Position numbers and translations under genes: made by a program. Positions 5,191 through 25,065 of a stretch of DNA of 64,000 nucleotides are shown here, in pieces (the stretch's first letter is position 1; the number at the start of each line of letters is the position of its first letter). The notes beneath the pieces were generated by a model. The model was given only the letters and a program-made list of their open reading frames with translations, was not told the origin of the DNA and searched no databases. The stretch is taken from NCBI GenBank assembly GCA_037305845.1, contig CP147778.1, positions 1,120,001-1,184,000 on the forward strand. Reading direction: 5' to 3'. The DNA is from Candidatus Freyarchaeum deiterrae (lineage in GTDB: Archaea; Asgardarchaeota; Jordiarchaeia; Jordiarchaeales; Jordiarchaeaceae).

Positions 5191-5486
5191 TTTTCCAACC
5201 CTGATGACTCGTTGATATCTTTTTGGCGTTTACACATTTAAGTTTGATTGTCCAAACCCCTATTAAATAATTTGGTAAATTCAAAATGTAAGGGCGTCAT
5301 AAATTTTTTTTACCTATTATATTTTTTATTAATATAAAAATAGTGTTTTAACATAAATCGCCAGATGAAAAAAAAGAGTGAAAAATATTTGAGTTTAAAA
5401 AAGAAAAATTTAAATGGTTAACGAAACAAAAATAAGTAACAACATAACACTCCTTCTGATAAAGAGGGTACAAGGGAGGTCTTTTA

Positions 5487-5834
5487 ATGGCTAAACAGGC
5501 AAAAAAGAAAAACAAGGAAGAAACTGTACCAGAAGAGAATATGGTTTTTATTGGAAAAAAACCGACAAAGTAGATTCACGTTAGTGTTCTACGTCGAATG
5601 AGTTACGTTCTGGCTTGCGTTATTCAGTTTAATCAGGGTGCGAAAGAAGTAAGAGTTGTGGCGCGTGGAAGGGCGATTTCCAAGGCTGTTGATGTTGCGG
5701 AGATCGTACGCCAGCGTTTCTTGCCTGAGGGTGTAAAATTGGGTAAGATTACTATGGGCACCGAGATTATGGGAGCTAGTGCTGACGAAAAACGTAATGT
5801 TTCCACTATTGATATTCAACTCCTAAAAGCTTAA
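5487..5834 (+). CDS. albA: DNA/RNA-binding protein Alba, intron-split: join(5487..5568,5599..5834), 105 aa
   Basis: GGAGGT then ATG 5487. Exon 1 ends ...[10 protein letters not shown]; exon 2 gives MSYVLA...[16 protein letters not shown]...NVSTIDI. Splicing restores GKKPTMSYVLA. Confidence 0.92.
5569..5598 (+). other. 30-nt BHB intron in alba
   Basis: CGAC-AA^A-GTAGA...TCTAC-GTCG-AA^T; contains in-frame TAG. Confidence 0.88.
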
Positions 5835-24605: not shown

Positions 24606-25065
24606 TTACTCCTTATCTTTTCTGAGCGGACTAGGTCCCAACTCCTTCAGTTTTTTCACAAAATCGTTCATAACTTCAACTAAAACATTACCTTCACTGG
24701 CTGAAATCCACTCCAACCTTAATCTCTCGGGTTCAATACCGAGCTGTTCAATTAACTTTTCGAGAAGTCTAATTCTCTCCTCAGCCCTGTAGTTTCCAGT
24801 AACATAGTGACAGTCACCGTGATGACACCCCGCTATAAGCACACCATCAGCACCCAATTCAAAAGCTTTCAAAACAAACTGAGGATCGACACGACTACTA
24901 CACATAACCCGAATAAACCTAGCATTTGAGGGATACTGCATCCTACTAGTACCCGCCATATCAGCGCCGGCATATGAACACCAATTCTGCGCCATGTAGA
25001 CAAATCTACGAAGCTTTGCAGAAGATGCCGACAATTCTTGGTTTAAATTCTCCGTCATTACCCAT
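24606..25065 (-). CDS. mvhD: MvhD [2Fe-2S] subunit, intron-split: join(complement 25016..25065, 24606..24984), 142 aa
   Basis: AGGTGA then ATG 25065: [16 protein letters not shown]|[12 protein letters not shown]...RVMCSSR...GCHHGDCHY. Intron removal restores the CNWC motif. Confidence 0.92.
24985..25015 (-). other. 31-nt BHB intron in mvhD
   Basis: CTGC-AA^A-GCT..GTAGA-TTTG-TCTAC..GGC-GCAG-AA^T; shifts frame and contains in-frame TAG. Confidence 0.9.

Follow-up and report, generated by a model that had tools for sequence, protein, structure and literature searches.

Positions 5569-5598 of the forward strand of the window (the whole 64,000-nucleotide stretch of the Candidatus Freyarchaeum deiterrae genome analysed here) very probably form an archaeal intron of the bulge-helix-bulge (BHB) type, which interrupts the coding sequence of one Alba paralog. 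A single contig of 3,576,204 bases makes up the genome of this soil Asgard archaeon; among named relatives, Ca. Jordarchaeum and Freyarchaeota MAGs are the nearest. The motif, the exact position of the junction, its conservation among relatives and the presence of the enzymes needed to process it are established, and from sequence comparison we infer that the Alba pre-mRNA is cleaved and ligated in vivo.

The interrupted Alba gene

The first exon of the gene (5487-5568, forward strand) comprises 27 codons and the first base of a Met codon, and encodes a lysine-rich tail followed by strand beta-1. A Shine-Dalgarno-like GGGAGG, read directly from the sequence at 5474-5479 on the same strand, lies 7 nt upstream of the exon-1 ATG and is kept ahead of this ATG in all eight of the genus-level relatives examined. 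Translation of the unspliced message from ATG 5487 ends after 28 codons at the TAG at 5571-5573, as a preliminary description of this DNA had claimed, and the sole Alba open reading frame on a mechanical list is the one given there, at 5598-5834, with a product of just 78 amino acids. Exon 2 (5599-5834, forward strand) runs from the TG of the Met codon to a TAA stop, has close homologs that are 85-92% identical and matches the Pfam Alba profile (PF01918; E = 2e-19) over profile positions 12-64. The 78-aa product is without profile positions 1-11 and hence has neither the first strand nor the GKKP lysines. As intronless orthologs match the same profile over positions 2-65, exon 1 encodes the part of the domain that is missing from exon 2, supplying positions 2-11.

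The predicted splice joins 5487-5568 to 5599-5834, reads CCG ACA A/TG AGT across the junction (CCGACAA joined to TGAGTTAC) and yields a protein of 105 aa containing GKKPTMSYVLA. This is the junction proposed in the preliminary description, and it holds: the sequence is that of the intronless L005/P0006, L107/P0008 and L108/P0009, and the predicted product aligns gap-free with the three uninterrupted paralogs of the same genome. With beta-1 and the GKKP lysines in place, the domain is full-length, the paralogs aligning end to end with the spliced product. The latter is also collinear with the Alba structures 2Z7C and 1H0X in the PDB and with P0006, P0008 and P0009, and the intronless ortholog P0006 is itself gap-free across the junction when compared with these two solved structures.

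The three additional Alba paralogs lie at 2257444-2257701, 2445858-2446115 and 1591795-1592052 of the contig (G000:C1); the third seemingly starts at a GTG/TTG after a GAGGTG. Among the four Alba genes of the genome, the lysine-rich tail and the intron are found in the window copy only. Public annotation presents this copy either as the truncated 78-aa form or as an artefact of reading through the TAG. One gene call (P0007; positions 75-431 of L006), of 118 aa, is such an artefact of gene calling, in which the intron is read through with TAG as Q. Short Alba calls of 75-78 aa in Odinarchaeota and others (P0012, P0034 and P0043, on L007, L008 and L009) were considered as further candidates for introns and rejected as mis-set starts, the genes being uninterrupted and beginning with TTG or other upstream start codons.

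Structure of the motif and its expectation by chance

Folding and comparison of intron-bearing sequences place the whole BHB motif at 5562-5600 of the forward strand, and the bases quoted for 5563-5600 in the preliminary description are present as given. A single outer pair (C5562:G5600) precedes a central helix of four base pairs, in which CGAC at 5563-5566 pairs with GTCG at 5593-5596. This helix is followed by a 3-nt 5' bulge, AAA (5567-5569), an inner helix of five base pairs (GTAGA at 5570-5574 with TCTAC at 5588-5592) and an apical stem (CAC at 5577-5579 with GTG at 5584-5586) around a 4-nt apical loop (5580-5583), with a 3-nt 3' bulge, AAT, at 5597-5599; the central, inner and apical stems were obtained with ViennaRNA. 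Each bulge lies 3' of its own strand of the 4-bp helix, which is the archaeal BHB orientation, and the CGAC bases contributed by the exon fall inside the Pro-Thr codons (CCG ACA). Boundaries of the intron were set on the premise that each bulge is cut between its second and third nucleotides, a rule that has been confirmed for the cbf5 intron (PMC2738675). The resulting 30-nt intron, at 5569-5598, carries the in-frame TAG, is equivalent to 5568-5597 through an A/A ambiguity and agrees with the exact 30-nt gap between the intronless contig L005 and the intron-bearing L015/L104. The insert thus has the two 3-nt bulges flanking a 4-bp central helix that define the archaeal motif, and the predicted cut after the second base of each bulge restores the Alba frame. 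The strict hBHBh' form has stable helices outside both bulges; here, the outer helix is 1 bp throughout, with the single C:G pair, remarked upon in the preliminary description, recurring in every copy. Judged from its sequence, the motif belongs to the relaxed class, as was claimed there, although the 3-4-3 core itself is canonical and just the outer helix is weak. A self-splicing intron of group I or group II was rejected, given inserts of 27-40 nt against a ribozyme core of several hundred nt. An Rfam search of the 64-kb window gave no match at gathering score.

One must consider how readily such a motif arises by chance. The stability of the hairpin is ordinary (z = -1.03), with 31 of 200 shuffles folding equally well in ViennaRNA, and thermodynamic stability was dropped as evidence, the hairpin being no stabler than shuffled sequence. 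Motifs of like quality occur in this genome at about 0.4-0.9 per kb per strand. A loose genome-wide BHB scan returned approximately 295,000 hits per strand; filtering by ORF left 80,220, and filtering by codon usage 3,300. So unspecific a scan cannot serve as an intron count, and only the chance frequency was used. With ordinary stability and so common a motif, the motif alone proves nothing, and its significance comes from its exact position and from the relatives. A BLAST search of the intron against the genome found no second copy, the matches of 13-15 nt being those of chance, and the Alba intron is therefore not in a repeat or MITE family.

Conservation and loss across Jord-/Freyarchaeia

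The intron is found at the identical Alba site in nine of the 11 species genomes of the class (Jord-/Freyarchaeia). All six genomes of the window's own genus carry a 30-nt version with the stem GTAGA...TCTAC, varying in the loop and in one base per bulge. Two of the four genomes of a second genus carry versions of 27 and 28 nt, with the inner stem GTGAGGCGG...CCGCC(C)CAC, and the one genome of a third genus has a 40-nt version with a 9-bp stem starting GTAGGGTAG. The central helix and the outer C:G pair are invariant in all 12 intron-bearing sequences and both bulges are always 3 nt long (12 of 12), the variable base being the third of the 5' bulge or the second of the 3' bulge. The inner hairpins, by contrast, are unrelated in sequence between genera, at 27, 28, 30 or 40 nt, and the 28-nt and 40-nt inserts break the reading frame unless removed. 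In an alignment of the nine distinct sequences, 97.8% of cells are paired and two pairs of the inner helix show compensatory changes. The covariation score of 0.194, against 0.111 in shuffles, was reached by none of 500 shuffles; with just three independent lineages, this may be taken as supportive, and not as a strong statistic. Inside the window's genus, the helices are without covariation and simply invariant.

Exon 1 itself appears, from the pattern of substitution, to be under coding selection, with its own Shine-Dalgarno sequence retained. Across the 12 intron-bearing sequences, the amino acids of its last 11 codons are kept or conservatively changed and the synonymous sites vary; Gly uses all four of its codons among relatives, and differences in exon-1 length (78-93 nt) are multiples of three. 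Set against this synonymous variation, the codons CCG ACA, from which the exon strand of the central helix and the first base of the bulge are drawn, are the same in every intron-bearing sequence. Such a combination of coding and structural constraint would be expected of a BHB that functions within a translated exon, and speaks against a truncated product from 5598. One intronless sequence, L108 (at about 1490-1500), has CCA in place of CCG, as would be expected if the structural constraint was lifted after intron loss.

The two species of the second genus that are without the intron carry the exact junction predicted for splicing. They are mutual closest relatives in this region (77.6% identity versus about 70-72%), and a single loss in the ancestor of both would be the simplest history. 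A further intronless sequence, the 1,057-nt Logan contig L005 from run SRR28530378, is 99.6% identical to an intron-bearing genome; set against the intron-bearing L015/L104, it has four mismatches and is short of exactly the 30 nt of the intron. The contig represents either a transcript that has been spliced or a very recent loss at the DNA level, an ambiguity that arises because intronless alleles of another gene, mvhD, on long DNA contigs show presence/absence polymorphism at the DNA level. A scan of JGI metagenomes for the spliced junction returned just orthologs of the sister genus, which are naturally intronless, and no spliced copy from the window's genus.

Splicing machinery and proposed pathway

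The genome encodes two EndA genes (PF01974/PF02778; L001 1147-1779 and L002 1477-2070). The Tyr/His/Lys triad is intact in the alpha subunit (L001), whose alignment with A. pernix 3P1Z_B is gap-free across the specificity loop, the RKP of the subunit matching the EKP (Lys44) of that protein; the second EndA (L002) has Thr at the position of the catalytic His. By sequence comparison, then, a catalytic subunit with the specificity-loop lysine is accompanied by a non-catalytic one, and the pair is assigned on this basis to the heterotetramer, or (alpha-beta)2, type. Heterotetramer-type EndA with a specificity loop is known from Asgard and TACK archaea, and the lysine of the loop has been linked to a broad substrate range and to cleavage of relaxed motifs (PMC5829648). 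The preliminary description had reasoned that a relaxed motif implies a broad-specificity endonuclease, and the subunit types, examined as it had proposed, bear this expectation out at the level of sequence. An RNA ligase for 2',3'-cyclic phosphate and 5'-OH ends is present in the form of RtcB (E = 1e-171), and archease is also encoded (E = 1e-47). Introns are carried by 92-95% of the genome's tRNA genes (PMC11291895); the paper describing the genome mentions introns in tRNAs only (PMC11291895). ARAGORN found no tRNA in the 64-kb window, which could nevertheless hide interrupted RNA genes.

In the pathway that we propose, the exon bases CGAC of the folded pre-mRNA would pair with GTCG at the 3' end of the intron, presenting two 3-nt bulges four base pairs apart. 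Heterotetrameric EndA (alpha and beta), the endonuclease of tRNA splicing, would cut after the second base of each bulge and RtcB, with the help of archease, would ligate the exons, rebuilding the Met codon from A and TG. The outcome would be a full-length Alba of 105 aa and a 30-nt intron that is probably freed as a circle, where unspliced mRNA would give a peptide of 28 aa at most. Further points count against splicing: the outer helix is one pair; the three other Alba genes are uninterrupted, so that the window copy is not demonstrably essential; and coupled translation could disrupt a hairpin situated 82 nt past the start codon.

Alternative explanations

That the insert is never removed, leaving either a decaying copy or a 78-aa protein made only from the internal ATG 5598, is a reading that we regard as very unlikely. 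Three intact paralogs could cover the function of Alba, public gene callers predict the 78-aa form and the start of exon 2 does bear an ATG in the window (TTG or GTG in relatives), yet ATG 5598 is without a Shine-Dalgarno sequence and the protein begun there would be without the first 11 positions of the Pfam domain. Such a reading is also hard to reconcile with an exon 1 whose Shine-Dalgarno sequence, frame and amino acids have been kept in three genera despite many synonymous changes, or with a hairpin whose structure is kept while its sequence turns over. A role for the ribosome, through decoding of the TAG or translational bypassing of the hairpin, gains some appeal from the length of the window's insert, a multiple of three, and from the single public gene call that reads through it with TAG as Q. 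In the sister genera, however, this site also holds inserts whose lengths, 28 and 40 nt, break the frame, which excludes readthrough as a general explanation; readthrough would also add ten residues between beta-1 and helix alpha-1 that are found in no homolog, matched take-off and landing codons are absent, and the feature that is conserved is the 3-4-3 geometry of a BHB. We consider this explanation exceedingly improbable.

A different question is whether a spliced intron is kept class-wide as a regulator, with EndA/RtcB capacity, or the binding of Alba to its own hairpin, gating synthesis of the lysine-tailed Alba. Retention at one site across a whole class with a single inferred loss, and the presence of the intron in just one of four Alba paralogs, are in keeping with such a gate, and a down-regulating role has been proposed for the cbf5 intron (PMC2738675). 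The same data are, however, explained by an intron that persists neutrally in a lineage very rich in introns (PMC11291895), and the lack of conservation of the inner hairpin sequence between genera speaks against a sequence-specific binding site; regulation is thus a rather unlikely addition to splicing itself. If true, it would provide one conserved case in which the tRNA machinery of Asgard archaea splices mRNA as a matter of routine.

Relation to known introns and to other split genes

A BHB intron within an archaeal coding sequence has been published for cbf5 alone (PMC7714728, PMC2738675), in Desulfurococcales and Sulfolobales (Watanabe 2002; Yoshinari 2006; Yokobori 2009, PMC2738675), and our search of the literature found no report of an intron in Alba. 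The two cases have much in common: a short BHB intron in a coding sequence, usually with a relaxed motif and a predicted cut between the second and third bulge bases, in hosts with heterotetrameric EndA, and ancestral to a clade with precise, lineage-specific loss. They differ in that Alba is another gene, encoding a chromatin/RNA-binding protein, in another phylum (Asgard), and that the Alba intron interrupts one of four paralogs, unlike the cbf5 case. Moreover, the cbf5 intron has been proven by cDNA and in vitro cleavage, whereas the Alba intron is supported by comparison. Non-canonical tRNA introns (the hBHBh' and HBh' classes of Marck and Grosjean) in hosts with (alpha-beta)2 EndA, among them those of the intron-rich tRNA genes of this genome, offer a second point of reference, sharing the 3-4-3 core, a similar size and, presumably, the enzymes EndA alpha/beta and RtcB (PMC11291895; PMC5829648). 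The host RNA of the Alba intron, in contrast, is an mRNA without a tRNA body to aid recognition, and the exon half of its central helix consists of the codons CCG ACA, under coding as well as structural constraint. In Haloferax volcanii, the HVO_1309 mRNA likewise contains an EndA substrate, a BHB intron (PMC7714728), but this is situated in the 5' UTR, an untranslated leader, leaving the reading frame intact, and has been shown by circRNA-seq and in vitro cleavage.

Other protein genes of the same genome hold comparable inserts. In mvhD, on the minus strand of the window, a BHB-type insert of 31 nt (24985-25015) separates ...IFC from NWCSY..., with the exon-1 ATG at 25065; the bulges AAA/AAT and the 5-bp stem GTAGA/TCTAC are common to this insert and the Alba intron. 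Its orthologs P0122 and P0123 are intronless and lie on DNA contigs of 12 kb and 85 kb. Outside the window, rtcB carries a hairpin insert of 29 nt (G000:C1:1452796-1452824, minus strand) within the conserved PDAHQGYGFPIGG motif, PDAHQGYGFP. As this is the only RtcB ligase gene of the genome, the message for the ligase itself appears to need splicing.

Alba would thus be, on the comparisons made here, a second and unrelated gene with a tRNA-type intron in its coding sequence, this time in Asgard archaea. Its site shared class-wide, the turnover of its hairpin and a single clean loss place it among the better comparative cases that this lineage offers for mRNA splicing. Taken together with rtcB and mvhD, it suggests that split protein genes are routine among these relatives of eukaryotes.
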